Notes under the pieces: generated by a model
What the model was told of the DNA's origin: nothing
The model's database searches: none
The model's input: the letters and a program-made list of their open reading frames with translations, nothing else
Source: a virus
Taxonomy: Duplodnaviria > Heunggongvirae > Uroviricota > Caudoviricetes
Virus record (IMG/VR): IMGVR_UViG_2778261638_000005
Coordinates: 1 to 64,000 of that record
Length of the DNA stretch: 64,000 bases
Reading direction: 5' to 3' (one strand)
Shown: one piece after another, positions 2,354 to 40,788 of the stretch
Numbering within the stretch: position 1 is the stretch's first letter
Layout of the letters: each line of letters opens with the position of its first letter
Translations under genes and position numbers: made by a program

Positions 2354-2368
2354 TTACCTTTCAGGTAA
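2354..2368. promoter_or_regulatory. Palindrome TTACCTTTCAGGTAA (TTACC-N5-GGTAA), upstream part of a repeated regulatory cassette preceding the tailspike gene
   Basis: Perfect inverted repeat; same motif at 18973..18987, 25564..25578 and 25626..25640. Confidence 0.5.
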
Positions 2369-2444: not shown

Positions 2445-2702
2445 ATGCAGCAGTATCACTATCCACTGGAAGACGGATTTACCGAAAGGGTTCACACGCC
2501 GGGAGGCGTCAGATCACTGGTGGAGGGATCGCACTTGATGAAATTACTCCGGGATCTCGATAAAGATGGATTCAATGTCGATGGCCCACTTGCCGAACTG
2601 ACTGCACTGATTAACTACGTAACCAGCTCACAGATGTCTATGCGGGATCTGCAAACACATCTCGACTATTGTGCCGAACAATTACGAAAACAAATCCGGT
2701 AA
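2445..2702 (+). CDS. Hypothetical small protein (85 aa from ATG; frame opens at TTG 2427), oriented opposite to the flanking virion genes
   Basis: ORF with GGAGAAG RBS about 8 nt upstream of ATG 2445; followed by a GAAA-tetraloop hairpin; no family recognised. Confidence 0.4.
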   Translation: MQQYHYPLEDGFTERVHTPGGVRSLVEGSHLMKLLRDLDKDGFNVDGPLAELTALINYVTSSQMSMRDLQTHLDYCAEQLRKQIR

Positions 2703-2709
2703 ATTTAAA

Positions 2710-2725
2710 GGCCGCGAAAGCGGCC
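2710..2725 (-). terminator. Stem-loop GGCCGC-GAAA-GCGGCC; U-rich tract on the minus-strand side
   Basis: 6-bp GC stem with GAAA loop; minus-strand reading gives hairpin then TTTAAATTT; sits between internal virion protein gene and tailspike gene. Confidence 0.35.
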
Positions 2726-2896
2726 TGTGGCATGTCACGCTCACGTTATGACAAACCTATGTACCCTGGCTACACCAGATAATATCAAAACAACTGCAAC
2801 AGCAAATTCACCATCACCAATGATACATTTACGGTTCATAACGCCAAGTGCAACAAGCGCAAACAAAACAAGAATAAAAGCAATCATTTCTCACCC

Positions 2897-16692: not shown

Positions 16693-16985
16693 TCCTGTTC
16701 ACTGGCCTCTTTGGCCATCTTCAAATACTGTTCAGGGCAATGCGCCATAACGCGCTGAAACAGTTCCAGCGCCAGATTGCGTTGCCCCTCATTAAATGCC
16801 ATTGCCATAGCGTCCATCGGTGAGATAGCGGAAAACACACGGCCTTTCTCCAGCACCGACCAGACAACGCGACGCCCCTGTTCACTGCTCATGACAAAGC
16901 GAATGTCATCAATTTCACGCTGCGCCATGTCACGTTGCTTACGGGCGTTTTCTTCTTTCAGTTGATCGTCTTCGTAATCTGTCAT
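16689..16985 (-). CDS. Hypothetical protein (98 aa)
   Basis: ORF translationally coupled between portal and scaffold genes. Confidence 0.4.
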   Translation of the reverse strand: MTDYEDDQLKEENARKQRDMAQREIDDIRFVMSSEQGRRVVWSVLEKGRVFSAISPMDAMAMAFNEGQRNLALELFQRVMAHCPEQYLKMAKEASEQE

Positions 16986-18661
16986 TGTGATTGCCCACCC
17001 TGACCACTAACTGCATTCGCCATAGCTGACAAAACACTCGGATCCGAAGTTTTAGCTTCGCTTAGCGTCTTGGCACCCTGTGCCGCCGCCATCCCCATCG
17101 CCATCATTTGTTGCTGCTGTTGTTGCTGTGCCCGTTGCTGGCGAGTCTGCTCAACCTGTTCCTGCGGAACAATGACGGTTGGAGACACTCCGGACATATC
17201 AGCGAATGCATCGATCGCCTGATCAACGTTGAGTTTGTCGAGAGCTTCTGGTTTCGCTTGCGCAAGTTGACCAATGAAGTTGACCGTAGACGCCAGACTG
17301 GACAGGCCGATAGACTTCTGCGCCTGAGCCATGACGGAAATGTATTCGACCTTCAGGGGCATACCTTCCATCGCGTCAGGCGGTGGCGGCAGCATTTTTT
17401 TACGCACCATCATCGAGAAAGCGCGGTCAATGAGAGGATTAAGACATTCGTCGTTCAGACGCTCCAGAACCGGCCCCAACATCAGAAGTTTTTCTTCTTT
17501 CATTTCGATCACCGCTTCAACAGGCATCGAGCGGGTATTGATGTTCTGCAACATCATGAACAGATCGACAAAGTAGGCGCTGTTAATGATTTGGCGAGTG
17601 TCCTGAATGTCTGCTACCAGATCTGCTGTACTGGGGTTAACCAGATAAGCAGGCCTGAAACCATCCTGACCAGTAATCTGATCGATATACGTGATGTCGC
17701 CAGGAAGAAGGGAGGCGCGCTGATTCTTGAGGGAAGTCGGAGCAACCATCGGCGGATTGGTGGCTTTATCAATCAACTGCGACTTGCGCTTCTGGAGAAG
17801 CTGCAATGCCTTAACAGGTCCAAGCGCCAGCATACCCGGGCATGATGATCCATAAACATCTTCGCCGTTAACTTCCCAGCGCGGAGCCATAATTGGAAAC
17901 TCATCGAATCCGGACTCACGCAACAACTTGTCGTTATCGCCACCAACCTCGTAATAAACCGATTTGAATGGCTTGTTCTTGCTATCCAGCTTCGATGTAT
18001 CGCGGTCAATGTTCGGGTAAACCGAATGCATCACTTCAATCCACTTCTCGTAGGTGCCGCTTTCCCACATGCTTTTTACGGATTCGCTGACGTTATTTAG
18101 CCCGAACTCCTGAACAAGCTGACGAACAGTCATAGAGAACTTGCGAAAACAGGTGTCCACACTGCCACGAGGTGAGTTAGCCAGGTAGTAACTGCCTATC
18201 GGGAATGGCATTGTGCGAATGATGTCCTCGTCATCCTCCAGCACTGCCATTGCACCAGTGCTGTATGTGCCGAGGCTTCCGTATAACTGCGGCAGAGACT
18301 GATAGAGATTCGACTTATTGAACATATCGTTCATGCGGTTCTGCACCGCCTCAAGCCACAACTTAACAGGGCCATAATCCATCATTTCAGGATCTGGCGT
18401 AGCCAGGCGAAACCACGGACGCGCGGGGCTTGTGATGCCTGACATCATGCCGCTGGCGAGAGTGCGCGCCGCCATAGTCCCGGTCGAATCAATAATGCGT
18501 GTATTGCGTCGATCGTTACGGTTGACCTCAGAAGTCAGAAAGCGGGAACCACGCGGGTTGATGTAATCACTCAACTCGCGCCAGTGCGGCTCGAACGACT
18601 GACGCTCGCTTTCAAGTTGTGCGAACTGTTTGTTCAATCGCTCTTTAGTTGTTTCCGCCAT
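16982..18661 (-). CDS. Portal (head-to-tail connector) protein (559 aa)
   Basis: Size and position upstream of scaffold/capsid; Gln-rich C-terminal tail typical of T7-type portals. Confidence 0.7.
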   Translation of the reverse strand: MAETTKERLNKQFAQLESERQSFEPHWRELSDYINPRGSRFLTSEVNRNDRRNTRIIDSTGTMAARTLASGMMSGITSPARPWFRLATPDPEMMDYGPVKLWLEAVQNRMNDMFNKSNLYQSLPQLYGSLGTYSTGAMAVLEDDEDIIRTMPFPIGSYYLANSPRGSVDTCFRKFSMTVRQLVQEFGLNNVSESVKSMWESGTYEKWIEVMHSVYPNIDRDTSKLDSKNKPFKSVYYEVGGDNDKLLRESGFDEFPIMAPRWEVNGEDVYGSSCPGMLALGPVKALQLLQKRKSQLIDKATNPPMVAPTSLKNQRASLLPGDITYIDQITGQDGFRPAYLVNPSTADLVADIQDTRQIINSAYFVDLFMMLQNINTRSMPVEAVIEMKEEKLLMLGPVLERLNDECLNPLIDRAFSMMVRKKMLPPPPDAMEGMPLKVEYISVMAQAQKSIGLSSLASTVNFIGQLAQAKPEALDKLNVDQAIDAFADMSGVSPTVIVPQEQVEQTRQQRAQQQQQQQMMAMGMAAAQGAKTLSEAKTSDPSVLSAMANAVSGQGGQSQ

Positions 18662-18675
18662 TTCAATGACTCCGG

Positions 18676-18882
18676 TTACTGACCAAGTAGCGTTTTACCG
18701 CTGGTATTAGCGGTTGATGTGTCGCCCTGAGAACCGGTAAGCAGCGTAGAACTACGACCAGCAGCAGCGCGACGGCGACGAGTTTCTTCGTCGCGGGCAT
18801 CAACAACGGCGGCATCCTGCTCCTGTGGTGCTGCCTGAACTTCTGGTGTTGCAGGCACTGATGGTGAGCTACCCATGCACAT
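18676..18882 (-). CDS. Small hypothetical protein (68 aa), low-complexity
   Basis: ORF just upstream of portal gene; may not be real. Confidence 0.25.
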   Translation of the reverse strand: MCMGSSPSVPATPEVQAAPQEQDAAVVDARDEETRRRRAAAGRSSTLLTGSQGDTSTANTSGKTLLGQ

Positions 18883-18972: not shown

Positions 18973-18987
18973 TTACCTTTCAGGTAA
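18973..18987. promoter_or_regulatory. Palindrome TTACCTTTCAGGTAA, second copy of the regulatory cassette (upstream of portal-region genes)
   Basis: Identical 15-mer to 2354..2368; nearby CATATGTGGTTAAATTGGTAA element at 18911..18931. Confidence 0.5.
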
Positions 18988-19309: not shown

Positions 19310-19386
19310 GTGGCATTAGCTCAGTCGGACAGAGCAACCGCCTTCTAAGCGGTTGGTCGCAGGTTCGAATCCTGCATGCCACGCCA
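19310..19386 (+). tRNA. tRNA-Arg (anticodon UCU), phage-encoded
   Basis: Cloverleaf by eye: acceptor GTGGCAT/ATGCCAC, D-arm GCTCAGTCGGACAGAGC, anticodon arm ACCGC-CTTCTAA-GCGGT, T-arm GCAGG-TTCGAATC-CTGC, 3' GCCA. Confidence 0.85.
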
Positions 19387-19548
19387 GAATCACGCCTAAG
19401 GACCGTGATGCCAGAAGTTCCAGTGCTTGGCGGTGATGGTTTCCCTTGAAGGACTATCACCGCACTTTTTACAGCAGGACGCCATTGCGATGACTTCATG
19501 CTGTAAACCCGTACAGCCACGGAAGGAAGAACTCATTGCTTCCAGTTC

Positions 19549-19572
19549 GCCCGGTTCGCCGGGCATTTTTTT
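19549..19572 (+). terminator. Intrinsic terminator GCCCGG-UUCG-CCGGGC + U7 downstream of tRNA, 12 nt upstream of the Gp49-like start
   Basis: GC stem, UUCG loop, run of 7 T. Confidence 0.6.
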
Positions 19573-19583
19573 AAGGTGAGATT

Positions 19584-19940
19584 ATGAACGACCAGCAAAT
19601 CGAAAAAGAAATCGTTGAGAAAGGCAAAACGGCACCGCGAGTTACGCCTCAATATATCGAAAGCATCATTCTTGAAGAGCATTTCTTTACTGCTTATGAC
19701 GGCATTCGTGCCGCCAATATGGGCGTTGGCGATTCATGGACAGCGCATAACTCTACAGACCTCCTGACTTTCTGCGTACTGGTGCTGAAGAATGGCTTCA
19801 CCGTCACCGGAGAGAGTGCCTGTGCAAGCCAGGAAAACTTTGATGCAGAAATTGGTCGGAAGATTGCCCGGCAGAATGCTGTAAACAAAATCTGGATGCT
19901 CGAAGGTTACTTGCTGAAGCAGAAGCTAAGCGAGCAATAA
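19584..19940 (+). CDS. Gp49-like (N4 gp49 / Sf6 gene 66 family-like) protein, 118 aa
   Basis: Sequence resembles the small prophage protein family common in enterobacterial prophages (recollection); AAGGTGAG RBS; opposite strand to flanking genes. Confidence 0.5.
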   Translation: MNDQQIEKEIVEKGKTAPRVTPQYIESIILEEHFFTAYDGIRAANMGVGDSWTAHNSTDLLTFCVLVLKNGFTVTGESACASQENFDAEIGRKIARQNAVNKIWMLEGYLLKQKLSEQ

Positions 19941-19960
19941 CACCGTGACATGTCACAAAC

Positions 19961-19987
19961 AGCCAGCCGATGAGCTGGCTTTGTTTT
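19961..19987 (+). terminator. Intrinsic terminator AGCCAGC-N6-GCTGGCT + UUGUUUU after Gp49-like gene
   Basis: 7-bp stem followed by T-rich tract; lies between convergent genes. Confidence 0.5.
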
Positions 19988-20030
19988 ATCCTCACCAGAG
20001 GATATCAGCAGCATTATCCCCTCCAACGGA

Positions 20031-21506
20031 TTAAGCATAGGGATCGTAATCTGTGATGGCCTTGCCTTGCTGGTTCTGCTGCCCGGGAATTCGCAGACGC
20101 TTCGACACAGGGAACGCAAACGTCAGCAGTAGCGCATCGCCTTTACCCGGCGAACGCCCAAGCCGCTCCTTGATATCTTCCTTCGGTTCGATAACGATTT
20201 TACCGTCCACTCGAACTTTGTACTCAGCCGCCGACAGGTCGTCCGCTGTTTCCTGGTCATCAAGCATGCCACCCAGCCTCAGCCATGTCTTGCATGAGTT
20301 GAACATCTCCCCACGCTTGTTGAGCATCTGCGGGTCAGTAGACGCGCCACCGAACGGAACAAGTTGCCATGTACGACCCCAGCCGTCACCGATTGACTTC
20401 AGACCAGTTCCGTAACCGAAGTCGATGAACACTGCGTCAGCCTGGTACTGGTCTTCAAAGTCAGCGATACGCTTCGCCATAATCAGATCGTCAGTGGTCT
20501 TGTTGCCAGTCCACAGCACCTTACTGTGCAGCCCCTGCCGCAGGTATATCACAGCGTCATCAACGCCGGAGTATGCCGGGTCAACGCCGATTATCACCGG
20601 AGCATGTGCAACCTGCGCAGCGGTTACCACCCGTTTCATTGCCTCGTCAGTAAGGCCAGTAGGGATAAACTGCAATTCAGATGCATCCGGGAATATGCCG
20701 CGCACACGGATTTTAACGAAGTCGCTGTCTTCCCCGTAGTCATCAACCCATTTCTGCAACTGCTGTTTGTTAGTGCCTTCCACCGTCCGGCTGTCAATCT
20801 GCGCACACTTCCAGCGGTGTTTGTACTTGCGGAAACATTCACGGAAACGCCCGGTGTTACGCGTCGGGTTTCCGAACGCCACCCAGATAATCTCAGTGTC
20901 TTCGTCCGTTAGCGCACCCTCGGCAACTTCCCACACCAGATCCGCAATGTTCGACGCTTCATCGAATACCACGATGATGCGTTTGCGCTCGTTGTGTAGT
21001 CCGGCGAATGCCTCAGTGTTGTGCTCAGACCAGGGGATTGCGTCAGCTCGCCACCGCTTGTCGTGCCCAGGGTCATTGCTGTACATCGCGGTAGCGGTAC
21101 AGGTAAACCAGTCTTTCGTGATAGCAAGGTTCGACCACTTGATAATTTCCGGCCAAGTCTTCGTTCGTAGCTGGTTGTCGGTGTTGGCGGTCACCACGAC
21201 CTTACAATCCTCGCAAGTGGACATGCCCCAGTTGATCAGCATTGAGATGAATGCGGATTTACCAATACCGTGACCCGAAGCACGTGCCAGCATAAGCGGC
21301 TGATAGCGCGTCTCTGGATTCTGCAGGTGATCACGTATCTCTCGGAACGCATCAGCCTGCCACTGACGTGGACCGGTGGCATGTGCTAATTCAGTCCCCT
21401 CTTCCCCCCACGGGAACGCATAGAGGGCATAGCCAAGCGGATCGTGAGTGAACCCTGCAATATCCTCGATCAACTGCTCTTCAGGAGATAACGCTGTATC
21501 TGTCAC
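20031..21506 (-). CDS. Terminase large subunit (491 aa)
   Basis: N-terminal ATPase with Walker A-like GHGIGKS, C-terminal nuclease-type acidic residues; overlaps small-subunit gene. Confidence 0.85.
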   Translation of the reverse strand: MTDTALSPEEQLIEDIAGFTHDPLGYALYAFPWGEEGTELAHATGPRQWQADAFREIRDHLQNPETRYQPLMLARASGHGIGKSAFISMLINWGMSTCEDCKVVVTANTDNQLRTKTWPEIIKWSNLAITKDWFTCTATAMYSNDPGHDKRWRADAIPWSEHNTEAFAGLHNERKRIIVVFDEASNIADLVWEVAEGALTDEDTEIIWVAFGNPTRNTGRFRECFRKYKHRWKCAQIDSRTVEGTNKQQLQKWVDDYGEDSDFVKIRVRGIFPDASELQFIPTGLTDEAMKRVVTAAQVAHAPVIIGVDPAYSGVDDAVIYLRQGLHSKVLWTGNKTTDDLIMAKRIADFEDQYQADAVFIDFGYGTGLKSIGDGWGRTWQLVPFGGASTDPQMLNKRGEMFNSCKTWLRLGGMLDDQETADDLSAAEYKVRVDGKIVIEPKEDIKERLGRSPGKGDALLLTFAFPVSKRLRIPGQQNQQGKAITDYDPYA

Positions 21507-22099
21507 TGATTACCATCCTGACGTTCTTTGAGTCGCTTCCTGGCTGCTGCTATGCGATCAGCAATTGTCACATTCACATTAACATCCAGACGTTCTTTGA
21601 ACGCGTTGACATCAACATGCTTACCAATCAGCTCAAGGTTCTTCACCTTGTCAGGCCATTTAATTTTTTTGAGGATTGTCTCTATCGAATCCTCGTTCAT
21701 GTTCATGATGGTCGATGACAGATCAAAGCCACTAAGCGTAGTGCGCCAAATTTTCGGCCACTCACGGATTGGTTTAAGGCTCCCATCGTCGTTGAGGATG
21801 TCGATCACGTCCATCTGGTCGATCTCCACCAGGCGCATGAGAACGTAATCAGCACTGACGCGCATTCGTTTGTTGCGCTCCTCCATCAACTCGGCAATCC
21901 GTTTTTGAATGCGTTCATCGCGCATCATGACACTGGCTTTAACTGCCGCTGTATTTGGGGAGAATCCTGCGTTAATCGCTGCCTGAGTCTGGTTTTCAGG
22001 CGTTTTGATGTATGACTGGCAATAAGCCTCCTGCATTGCTGTTAGTGGCTTAAATTGCGTTGATTTGCGTTTATAGGTTTTAGGTTCAGCAGGCATCAT
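21503..22099 (-). CDS. Terminase small subunit (about 198 aa; start set at MMPAEPK)
   Basis: Precedes and overlaps large subunit; upstream part of the long ORF contains a terminator hairpin, so the internal ATG is preferred. Confidence 0.6.
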   Translation of the reverse strand: MMPAEPKTYKRKSTQFKPLTAMQEAYCQSYIKTPENQTQAAINAGFSPNTAAVKASVMMRDERIQKRIAELMEERNKRMRVSADYVLMRLVEIDQMDVIDILNDDGSLKPIREWPKIWRTTLSGFDLSSTIMNMNEDSIETILKKIKWPDKVKNLELIGKHVDVNAFKERLDVNVNVTIADRIAAARKRLKERQDGNQ

Positions 22100-22150
22100 A
22101 ACCACCGTGGTAATAGTTACCGTTGTGGTAATAGTATCATGCAAAATAAA

Positions 22151-22168
22151 GCCGCCATAGTTGGCGGC
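22151..22168 (-). terminator. Hairpin GCCGCCA-N4-TGGCGGC + UUUAUUUU (minus strand) upstream of terminase operon
   Basis: 7-bp stem and U-tract when read on the minus strand. Confidence 0.5.
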
Positions 22169-22217
22169 AGTATTCAAAACCCATCAAATTCATCATGCAT
22201 AATCTACTCGTGACATG

Positions 22218-22556
22218 TCACACTATTAATTTCGTTTCATGCCAGCCTTTAGTCACCCAGCATTGCGAGTCACCATTACACGGGCATGAATTAACTGGAA
22301 CTCTCTCGCCGCACTTACCGCAACGTTTTCTGCTGATCGATTTTATACGCCCGCGCACGCGTGCATCATCCTGGCGGATCAGTAACGCTATATACTCACC
22401 AAATTCGTAAGGCGCACGCCCGGGGCGACGCGTGGCACAGTTACGCTCCAGCATTTCAATTTCCTGAGCATCAAGCACAATTTCCAGCTTACGCACACCA
22501 GATGCAGCTTGTCTGGCTCTCTGAGCGGCTTTGCGCTCTGCTGATGATTTAGCCAT
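22218..22556 (-). CDS. Hypothetical protein with C-terminal Cys-rich zinc-ribbon-like motif (112 aa)
   Basis: CGKCG...CPCNGDSQC motif; basic N-terminus. Confidence 0.4.
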   Translation of the reverse strand: MAKSSAERKAAQRARQAASGVRKLEIVLDAQEIEMLERNCATRRPGRAPYEFGEYIALLIRQDDARVRGRIKSISRKRCGKCGERVPVNSCPCNGDSQCWVTKGWHETKLIV

Positions 22557-25563: not shown

Positions 25564-25640
25564 TTACCCCTGAGGTAATTAAAAACCACATAAGACACGA
25601 AATCAATAGATTTTAGAATATTTCATTACCCAGAAGGTAA
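25564..25640. promoter_or_regulatory. Third copy of regulatory cassette: palindromes TTACCCCTGAGGTAA (25564..25578) and TTACCCAGAAGGTAA (25626..25640) flanking a TTGATT-17-TTTAAT promoter-like element
   Basis: Minus-strand reading: TTGATT, 17 nt, TTTAAT, then the palindrome overlapping the leader/RBS of the DUF1064-like gene. Confidence 0.5.
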
Positions 25641-39300: not shown

Positions 39301-40788
39301 TTACAGAATGAACTGAACTTGTGCCGCGAAAATGCGGAACTGGTTAATCAGATTCGGGCCGCACAGCACATCAAGACGGTCTTTGTCGTCCTTGTTACGT
39401 GCCACATACAGCTCCTCTTTGAACGTGTCGAAATCCTCGACCAGTCCGGCGTTTTCCCATTCTTCAAACAGTGCCAGCAGCTCCGTTTTGATCACGGATG
39501 GCGTCACCACGGCCTGACCGGTGGCAAAGCGGGTGCCATCACTTGCCAGCTTGTAGTTCGGGAATTTCTGCGTGATGCGGGTTCGCAGTGAATAACGCAG
39601 ATAACTCAGCGTGGCGATGGTATTCACGTTCAGATAAGACGGATCACTGTCACCGTACTTGTTTGTGCGGTACATCGTGATCATGCGTTCAATCTGCATT
39701 TCACCACCATCATTCACGTTAAACGTGGAGATGCCGTCAAACAGCAGCGCATTACGTTCTGACCAGGTGAAACGATCCCCCACCGCAGGCGGCATTCTTC
39801 CGGGCAACGTCAGCGTCTGGAGAGGACGCGCCGGGTCGATGGAAAGCGCCTGGCTGGCAACGGCACACAGTGTGGCGGCGTACAGATATGACGGTTCCGG
39901 TGCACCGGCAATCCCCATACAGGAGATCAGATGATCATTACGACTGACACCAAACGTGGAAATATCCCCATACGTGCCGGACAGCACTGTCACGGCAAAG
40001 CCATCAGCCTGATTGACCGGTCCCCAGCGTTCCTGCAATTCAGTGCGTAACAGATTCAGGTTCGGTTCATCGGTATAGGGCATCACAATATATTTGTATT
40101 GCAGATCGCCCATTCCCGCGATACTTGCGCTGATATCCGGGTTGCCATTTTTCCCGGAGGCGGCTTTGAATGCCGTGATAATCCCGTAAGGGGTGGTTTC
40201 ACCCGCGTAATAGTTCCAGCGCACATCCACGGCAGATAATGCACCCGTAAATTTTGCACTCAGAACCACATCTGCATGGGTGTCATCATCCCCGCTGTCT
40301 GCGCGAACTTCTGCCGTCACCGGTAAATCCGGCTGGCCTTTGATTCGGGCAACCAGCAGGTCAGCCAGCGCCGCTCCCGTTGCACCTGCTGCGACAGATA
40401 CCGCCAGTCGCTGACCGGCAATGTAAGTCACAAGCGAGCCGTTTTCGCCTGCCGTTCCTGACAGTGAAATTTCACCGACAGCAGCATTACCGGTGCCGTT
40501 CCCCTGCGGAATACACCACAGCTCCGCCACGCGGTTAGCGTTCAGGAATGCATCTGCCATCAGTGCCAGCATGGAACCCTGACCAAACGCCGCACTGGCC
40601 TGTGAGCCGGAACGGATACGGACAGGCACGTCTGGTGCCGCACTGGCTTTACTTCCGCTTTGCCCGAACATCAGCACGCGCTGACGGGGTGCCGGTGTTC
40701 CGCTGACGGCATTACTGTTATCAAATTCGATATACGTCAGAGGAACGCGAACATCTGACGGGATCGCGTTAAATGAAATATCGCTCAT
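39301..40788 (-). CDS. Contractile tail sheath protein (Mu L/gp39-like), 495 aa
   Basis: Size and position; myovirus sheath-type composition. Confidence 0.8.

Follow-up and report, generated by a model that had tools for sequence, protein, structure and literature searches.

A palindrome beside the terminase genes of an epsilon15/phiV10-type prophage is a probable operator of a phage-encoded regulator

Introduction

What is the role of a short palindrome that is present in identical form on both sides of the terminase genes of a prophage? This question is raised by a stretch of 64,000 nucleotides (nt) from a Caudoviricetes virus (IMG/VR record IMGVR_UViG_2778261638_000005, positions 1 to 64,000; hereafter referred to as the window), a region of which represents an epsilon15/phiV10-like (Uetakevirus) prophage that is 94-98% identical in DNA sequence to phiV10, ZX5, TL-2011b, and others. 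The late genes of this prophage are located on the minus strand, and the unit formed by the genes for the small (terS) and large (TerL) terminase subunits is flanked by two exact copies of the 14-mer CGTGACATGTCACA (Table 1), which reads tGTGACATGTCACg on the late strand. A first-pass annotation, made from the sequence alone, had located both copies correctly, had placed one of them about 75 bp beyond the TerL stop codon (we measured 73 nt), and had suggested a protein-binding site, for example a packaging-related or regulatory one, or the boundaries of an exchanged module.

The working core of the 14-mer is a 12-bp palindrome of the pattern GTGAC-NN-GTCAC ("PAL"), which is represented by GTGACATGTCAC in the window. 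We found that PAL follows the gene for a 112-amino-acid (112-aa) regulator and not the terminase genes, and both comparative sequence data and structure modeling indicate that it is very probably an operator bound by this protein, whose predicted fold is of the ribbon-helix-helix type. The copy at the end of the regulator gene will be referred to as PAL1 (the second copy in the first-pass annotation), that downstream of TerL as PAL2 (the first copy), and a degenerate copy elsewhere in the window as PAL3.

Results

PAL accompanies a regulator gene in unrelated phages

Homologues of the regulator were detected by tblastn in 154 phage records of very different types, and homologues occur in N15, ZF40, P2-like Yersinia phages, Mu-like and lambda-like phages, and phages of Vibrio and Aeromonas. 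Every lineage that we fetched, about nine independent ones, possesses the same palindrome arms near the regulator gene (Table 1), and the central dinucleotide is lineage-specific (AT, TG, AC/CC, or CG). Invariant 5-bp arms around a free 2-bp center fit the binding of a twofold-symmetric dimer to double-stranded DNA. Members of the N15 lineage carry a second, identical copy within repA that is present in all 45 N15-like contigs reaching far enough upstream, and this hints at a control of replication-gene transcription.

No PAL was found in Pseudomonas prophages that encode a homologous TerL (about 50% identity) and have no regulator gene within 8 kb. Since the palindrome is found with the regulator in unrelated phages and is absent from prophages with a homologous terminase that lack the regulator, the motif follows the regulator and not the terminase. 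The association with the terminase module, which the first-pass annotation had proposed to look for in related phages, is hence replaced by one with the 112-aa regulator gene.

The same association emerged from the reverse direction. A scan of IMG/VR for the 14-mer recovered at least 120 stretches holding it. Among the 120 matches listed, 46 encode a regulator homologue, mostly with PAL at -1 to +9 nt of its stop codon, and about 25 more represent PAL2 or PAL3 of epsilon15-like genomes; the remainder are chance matches in coding sequence or belong to arrays of GTGAC repeats in unrelated contigs. In five such viral contigs (L274, L293, L303, L322, and L360), dense arrays of GTGAC/GTCAC half-sites surround an exact PAL, and no regulator homologue is encoded in the stretches fetched; these arrays may be iteron-like and serve another protein. 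A search for related loci with a mixed alignment returned close relatives only.

Duplication of the 14-mer as such, considered by the first-pass annotation to be improbable by chance, turned out to be a weak argument, as identical 14-mers are common in the window (70 pairs; Markov simulations gave about 11). GTGACATGTCAC is the only duplicated one among the 18 perfect 12-bp palindromes of the window; in the simulations, no more than 6 of 200 windows contained any 12-bp palindrome twice. For the pattern GTGAC-NN-GTCAC, the chance expectation is 0.077 occurrences per 64 kb, or about 0.008 per 8 kb. Judged from the comparative sequence data, the palindrome is a real element under selection, and its conservation across phages is the strong evidence for this.

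PAL marks the ends of transcription units in epsilon15-like prophages

PAL1 is present at the regulator stop codon in all epsilon15-like relatives that we compared, whatever sequence comes after it. Among diverged enterobacterial relatives, defined as prophages with a TerL 75-95% identical to that of the window (L084-L096, L100), PAL1 is exact in 14 of 16, and the two variants differ only at the central bases (CCTG and CAGG). Homology between relatives ends 1-2 nt past the palindrome, which is followed, depending on the relative, by a terminator and terS, by a LexA-box promoter and a umuD-like gene, by a 70-aa cargo gene, or by other genes. For PAL1, neither the absence nor the random placement in close relatives that the first-pass annotation had considered was found, as it always lies at the regulator stop.

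PAL2 starts 73 nt past the TerL stop codon. Of 80 close relatives, 57 have an exact copy and another 7 a variant with one changed base; among the diverged relatives, 8 of 14 possess PAL2, as does epsilon15. Nearly every lineage possesses a different antisense cargo gene next to PAL2. PAL2 sits between the hairpin of terminator T2, 3-4 nt away, and the stop codon of the plus-strand cargo gene, and in one close relative (L059) PAL2 is gone and the hairpin is retained. PAL3 is located 2 nt after the stop codon of a gp18-like gene, and its equivalent is an exact palindrome in epsilon15 (at 19517) and in many E. coli relatives.

The complete epsilon15 genome possesses exactly three PALs (Table 1). 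Every one of them is located where a transcription unit ends (3' end), with an intrinsic terminator and a variable cargo slot as neighbors. In many cases the palindrome encloses the stop codon of the gene before it (G-TGA-C), as observed for gp49 and gp18 of epsilon15, gp46 of N15, and the regulator-bearing phages L093 and L378. Because the sites mark the ends of successive transcription units, the bracketing of the terminase genes is a by-product of this arrangement. With respect to the exchanged module envisaged by the first-pass annotation, the sites do lie exactly where conserved DNA meets variable cargo DNA; it is the link to the terminase module that did not hold.

One might take PAL for a packaging signal; i.e., a pac site recognized by terminase or the site of a packaging accessory protein. 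PAL1 is indeed only about 110 nt upstream of terS, a PAL copy of the Vibrio K233-like phages lies 19 nt before terS, and cis-acting proteins often have their site in or beside their own gene. However, epsilon15 harbors three exact copies of the palindrome and not a single site, and one of these is 17 kb away from the terminase genes. In N15, ZF40, and the Mu-like phages, whose terminases are unrelated, a long distance separates the motif from the terminase genes; P2-like and lambda-like phages with unrelated terminases possess it as well, and prophages with a homologous terminase but no regulator gene nearby do not. Furthermore, 6 of 14 diverged relatives have no copy downstream of TerL. The database records of phiV10 and epsilon15 are cut at this place along gene or terminator boundaries, and their ends do not reflect mapped DNA ends. 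Copy number, linkage to the type of terminase, and distance from terS all argue against a role in packaging, which we regard as highly improbable. What stands of the binding site originally suggested is a conserved, non-chance site of the kind bound by dimeric proteins, and the packaging-related part of that suggestion is not supported.

A second alternative starts from the cargo slots. All three of them begin at PALs, and homology breaks within 1-2 nt of the palindrome at both exact copies of the window, as would be expected if the palindrome were a short conserved linker for cargo swaps with no binding function. Yet efficient homologous exchange would require more than 12 bp, the palindrome is not accompanied by a dedicated recombinase, and the palindrome arms are kept in N15 and in Vibrio, Aeromonas, and Mu-like phages in the absence of any flanking homology, so that only selection on the sequence itself explains their retention. 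We therefore consider a recombination junction very unlikely.

The regulator is a predicted ribbon-helix-helix protein

The 112-aa protein and epsilon15 gp49 belong to the same family, PHROG 536 ('transcriptional regulator'), which comprises 231 representative clusters at 50% identity; sequence searches against Pfam, NCBIfam, and PDB gave no significant match. A first structural model built from a shallow alignment was of low quality (predicted local distance difference test score, 62) and without Foldseek matches. This was remedied through the addition of Vibrio-type homologues to the alignment, and the protein then models as a ribbon-helix-helix fold. It possesses an Arg-rich helix at its N-terminus, and four cysteine residues (C40, C79, C82, and C99) are invariant across distant family members, which suggests a zinc site. 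About 12% of complete E. coli genomes (637 of 5,426) carry the region with the regulator gene and PAL1, and the annotation of the gene in them is only 'hypothetical protein'. We found no description of the protein or of PAL in the literature searched, and searches for literature on epsilon15 packaging and on N15 gp46 yielded nothing usable. The 'gp46' of a telomere-phage proteomics paper is the cB repressor of that phage under a different numbering and not a homologue of N15 gene 46.

The closest known kind of system is the phage ribbon-helix-helix repressor with a palindromic operator, as exemplified by Arc or Mnt of phage P22 and by CopG. These systems likewise consist of a small dimeric ribbon-helix-helix protein, as predicted here, and a short palindromic operator, and Arc and Mnt are phage-encoded as well, among late and cargo genes. 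In the Aeromonas relatives, the operator is found just downstream of the regulator's own promoter, as is the case for autoregulatory repressors. The regulator differs from Arc, Mnt, and CopG in that it shares no sequence similarity with them and possesses an extra C-terminal part with the four invariant cysteines, and the operators of the epsilon15 type are positioned at the 3' ends of genes beside terminators and not over promoters.

The half-sites GTGAC and GTCAC are identical to those of matS, the 13-bp site GTGAC[AG]N[TC]GTCAC of the E. coli Ter macrodomain (PMC3603311, PMC3116907). MatP binds via a ribbon-helix-helix domain, the fold predicted for the regulator, and has several dispersed sites per replicon. 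A host factor of the MatP/matS-like, SlmA-like, or CRP-like kind could be considered as the protein that binds the palindrome. However, matS has a 3-bp spacer and the 12-bp PAL a 2-bp spacer, so that no PAL is a matS site; a search of the window with a spacer of 3 bp gave no matS match, and the regulator is without the four-helix bundle and the coiled coil of MatP. CRP half-sites would be 4 bp apart instead of 6. Moreover, the motif accompanies the phage regulator in hosts ranging from Vibrio to Pseudomonas and is absent where the regulator is missing, and a host-factor site is hence a highly unlikely explanation.

Terminators, operators, and promoters around PAL

Intrinsic terminators are closely associated with the PALs of the window. 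PAL1 is located about 40 nt upstream of the terminator at 22151-22168 (T1), which precedes terS, and PAL3 abuts that at 2709-2726 (T3); T2 serves as terminator for the antisense cargo and forms the 3' end of the TerL transcript as well, and its hairpin displays compensatory changes in relatives. PAL itself is transcribed and is often positioned directly 5' of a ribosome-binding site (in N15, in E. coli relatives with an intact cargo gene after PAL1, and in Vibrio and Aeromonas phages). Taken together with the Arg-rich N-terminal helix of the regulator, this could point to an RNA element, in which the transcribed palindrome would form a hairpin for processing, translation, or termination. Against this, the hairpin is weak (a 4-bp stem, -2.7 kcal/mol, z-score -1.5), its arms never covary, and the would-be loop varies freely. 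Furthermore, the stem is disrupted in GTGACCGGACAC, the variant conserved in Aeromonas phages; the second N15 copy lies within repA in antisense orientation, and no Rfam match was obtained. The RNA element is the reading to which we give the least credence.

A different palindrome, TTACC-N5-GGTAA, is dispersed over the same intergenic regions and is annotated in the epsilon15 record as the operator of the prophage repressor; PAL is annotated in none of the epsilon15, phiV10, and TL-2011b records. The two palindromes differ in sequence and in the protein presumed to bind them, and TTACC-N5-GGTAA occurs where units start and also within the immunity region, in contrast to PAL, which occupies the ends of units. 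Its position just upstream of terS, gp3, and the tailspike gene (Table 1) implies that the late units are directly repressed by the prophage repressor. As each late unit has its own TTACC-N5-GGTAA region, the resulting layout is a unit, PAL and a terminator, a cargo slot, an operator/promoter region, and the next unit; it reads as a set of insulated units.

The position of PAL relative to promoters differs between phages. In Aeromonas phages, strong extended -10 promoters, among them that of the regulator gene itself, are followed by the site at a distance of 13-16 nt. The site lies shortly before the ribosome-binding site, in the initially transcribed region and not over the promoter. In the lambda-like phage L378, two PALs bracket the -10-like sequence TATATAAAT, and an overlap of operator and promoter is probable there. 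Three promoter-based arrangements were considered and rejected. A late promoter of the phage P1 Lpa type, with a palindrome near -22 and a -10 region, is not supported because no -10 region occurs at a fixed distance after PAL across relatives. A function of PAL as a -35 element (GTGACA) rests on a single weak match that is not conserved, and a classical upstream activator of the terS promoter is at odds with a PAL1-terS distance that varies from about 60 to more than 1,000 nt among relatives.

The arrangement at PAL1 resembles that of lambda Q and tR': the gene lies right before the late genes, and an adjacent DNA site is followed by an intrinsic terminator and then by the late genes. By analogy, the regulator bound to PAL DNA could make RNA polymerase resistant to T1, T2, and T3, so that the early-right transcript would extend through terS-TerL, the head genes, and the tailspike gene. 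The regulator gene is the last early gene before terS, as Q is in lambda, it is found beside or near mor or Q genes elsewhere, and none of the relatives has lost it. PAL1 and PAL3 are followed at 0-40 nt by strong terminators in the late direction, no obvious strong promoter before terS was seen on manual reading, and the PALs of Vibrio K233 and L378 are followed by a terminator within about 250 nt and then by lysis genes, a layout similar to that of PR'-tR'.

Several observations nevertheless make a Q-like late switch rather unlikely. The regulator appears unrelated to lambda Q, and Pfam, NCBIfam, and PDB sequence searches revealed no similarity to the Q or N families; we know of no ribbon-helix-helix antiterminator. 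The PALs of the window are found as three sites at the ends of units and are not embedded in a promoter as the binding element of lambda Q is, and as they have no convincing promoter or sigma-dependent pause element, loading of the Q type seems unavailable to them. In addition, PAL2 comes after the T2 hairpin in the late direction, every late unit already has its own repressor-operator region, and N15 and ZF40 carry a separate Q-like gene besides the regulator.

Neighboring genes and cargo slots

The content of the cargo slot beside PAL2 varies among relatives; in the window it comprises a tRNA-Arg gene (anticodon TCT) and a gp49/66-family gene, between which plus-strand hairpins are present at 19430-19463 and 19549-19564. 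In the slot beside PAL3, a near-consensus LexA box (TACTGTATATTCATACAGTT, 2406-2425) precedes a plus-strand cargo open reading frame (ORF; 2427-2702), and in two relatives (L084 and L087) a LexA-box promoter and a umuD-like gene directly follow PAL1. With LexA boxes at slots beside PAL sites, the cargo there appears to be SOS-controlled.

Between PAL1 and T1, the window contains the mini-ORF MHDEFDGF-stop. It is the leftover 3' end of the 70-aa cargo gene (...YDEFDGL-stop) that is intact after PAL1 in many relatives, e.g., L011, and this deletion remnant is thereby ruled out as a leader-peptide attenuator.

Three of the diverged relatives (L095, L096, and L100) carry a 321-aa in-frame insertion after TerL residue 84, in the Walker-A loop (GIGK/ALRPDD...VVTHN/SAFISML). 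Its LAGLIDADG-type motifs indicate an intein with a homing endonuclease, and a similar split of TerL was seen in the tblastn match of L102 (Samsonia). Beyond the Uetakevirus-like region, the window contains long, mostly minus-strand ORFs at about 29000-50000 that may belong to another prophage; no PAL is found inside.

Table 1. Positions of PAL copies, genes, terminators, and operators in the window and in other phages
Feature	Genome	Position	Strand	Sequence	Context
PAL1	Window	22209..22222 (core 22210-22221)		GTGACATGTCAC (core)	Contains TGA stop of regulator gene
PAL2	Window	19944..19957 (core 19945-19956)			Between TerL end and 3' end of antisense cargo gene
PAL3	Window	2727..2738		GTGGCATGTCAC (plus), GTGACATGCCAC (minus, late)	Degenerate copy, one mismatch
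Regulator gene, 112 aa	Window	22218-22556	minus		epsilon15 gp49/N15 gp46 family, PHROG 536
terS	Window	21503-22099	minus		
TerL	Window	20031-21506	minus		terS-TerL unit (20031..22099) lies between PAL1 and PAL2
gp3	Window	18676-18882	minus		
Portal gene	Window	16982-18661	minus		
T1, intrinsic terminator	Window	22142..22168	minus	GCCGCCAACTATGGCGGC, then U-tract	Between PAL1 and terS; same element annotated in epsilon15
T2	Window	19961..19988	plus	Hairpin AGCCAGC..GCTGGCT (19961-19980)	Strong U-tract on plus strand
T3, intrinsic terminator	Window	2701..2726	minus	AGGCCGCTTTCGCGGCCT, then TTAAATTT	Abuts PAL3
Antisense cargo slot	Window	19310..19940	plus		Beside PAL2; tRNA-Arg(TCT) 19310-19386, gp49/66-family gene 19584-19940
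Mini-ORF	Window	22174..22200	minus		Between PAL1 and T1
Repressor operator	Window	22117-22131		TTACC-N5-GGTAA	Over terS leader
Repressor operator	Window	18973-18987		TTACC-N5-GGTAA	Before gp3
Repressor operator	Window	2354-2368		TTACC-N5-GGTAA	Before tailspike gene
Repressor operator	Window	25564-25578		TTACC-N5-GGTAA	Early region
Repressor operator	Window	25626-25640		TTACC-N5-GGTAA	Early region
PAL	epsilon15	39612			At gp49 stop; terminator 39646-39672, 22 nt on
PAL	epsilon15	2142			After TerL hairpin, which is the neighboring terminator
PAL	epsilon15	19517			Overlaps gp18 stop; terminator 19531-19556, 2 nt on
PAL	Pectobacterium phage ZF40			GTGACATGTCAC	2 nt past regulator stop
PAL	N15 and 48 N15-like contigs			GTGACTGGTCAC	Overlaps gene 46 stop in 46/49 loci, 21 nt downstream in 3/49
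PAL, second identical copy	N15	33237 of N15 record (L251 1238-1249)	antisense to repA	GTGACTGGTCAC	Inside repA, about 620 nt from repA start
PAL, two copies	Vibrio K233-like phages			GTGAC(AC/CC/GC)GTCAC	One 19 nt before terS start codon
PAL cluster	P2-like Yersinia phage				33-bp spacing; 3.4 kb downstream of regulator gene
PAL	Pseudomonas lundensis prophage L093			GTGACGTGTCAC	8 nt past end of regulator match
PAL	Mu-like phage L376			GTGACCGGTCAC	Within last 33 nt of regulator gene, before gemA and mor
PAL, two sites	Lambda-like L378/L379				32 bp apart, after small gene following regulator
PAL, several copies	Aeromonas phages			GTGACCGGACAC	One before regulator gene

Discussion

The arrangement described above can be accounted for by a PAL-binding regulator that acts at the boundaries of transcription units, an explanation in which, taken as a whole, we place moderate confidence. 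A dimer of the 112-aa ribbon-helix-helix/zinc protein would bind the 12-bp PAL operator, and in genomes of the epsilon15 type three PALs each mark the downstream end of one transcription unit: PAL1 that of the early-right operon, PAL2 that of the terS-TerL unit, and PAL3 that of the unit for head and ejection proteins. Each PAL has an intrinsic terminator and a variable cargo slot as neighbors, and the next unit starts behind its own prophage-repressor operator. The bound protein would block or insulate RNA polymerase at the boundary; this would limit read-through from the early operon into the cargo and terminase genes as well as clashes between late units and antisense cargo, and the regulator would feed back on its own mRNA. 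Ribbon-helix-helix proteins are mostly repressors, and the sites shortly after promoters in Aeromonas phages, the two sites around the -10-like sequence of L378, and the layout of insulated units point in the same direction. A repressor-type action as a roadblock or insulator at the boundaries is plausible, although we advance it tentatively, and other uses of the same protein-DNA pair, e.g., looping, seem unlikely to us.

Several observations weigh against repression at the boundaries. No promoter overlaps any PAL of the window, according to both promoter calls and manual reading, so that classical promoter occlusion is inapplicable here, and a roadblock just before a strong terminator looks redundant. 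PAL2 is dispensable, as it is absent along with the hairpin in the six diverged relatives mentioned above, and PAL3 of the window is mismatched at one base. Moreover, the regulator gene sits where other phages have positive late regulators: it is the last early gene before terS in the window, adjoins Q in ZF40, follows Q at a distance of a few genes in N15, and is adjacent or close to mor in Mu-like phages. It is, in addition, retained without exception in a region that is mosaic. An essential activator or antiterminator would account for its position and retention no less well.

It is possible, though we think it doubtful, that PAL and the ribbon-helix-helix/zinc protein make up a system dedicated to boundary control in mosaic phage genomes. 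One small protein at the 3' end of every unit would decide whether polymerase crosses through the cargo slots into the next unit, either by loading on elongating polymerase at a DNA palindrome, which would make it a new, fourth kind of Q-like antiterminator, or by acting as a programmable insulator; arms of the matS type with a spacer shorter by 1 bp would keep it separate from the host MatP.

PAL and the 112-aa protein represent a newly recognized operator-regulator pair of a familiar kind in an unusual placement. Its recognition corrects the tempting mis-annotation of PAL as a packaging signal. If the regulator does control read-through at the boundaries, this would explain how antisense cargo genes are tolerated between late operons. 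With regulator and PAL recognized as a pair, experiments on epsilon15/phiV10-type prophages of E. coli O157 and Salmonella can directly address how late genes and lysogenic-conversion cargo are controlled; the cargo here includes a tRNA-Arg gene, umuD-like genes, and genes apparently under SOS control.

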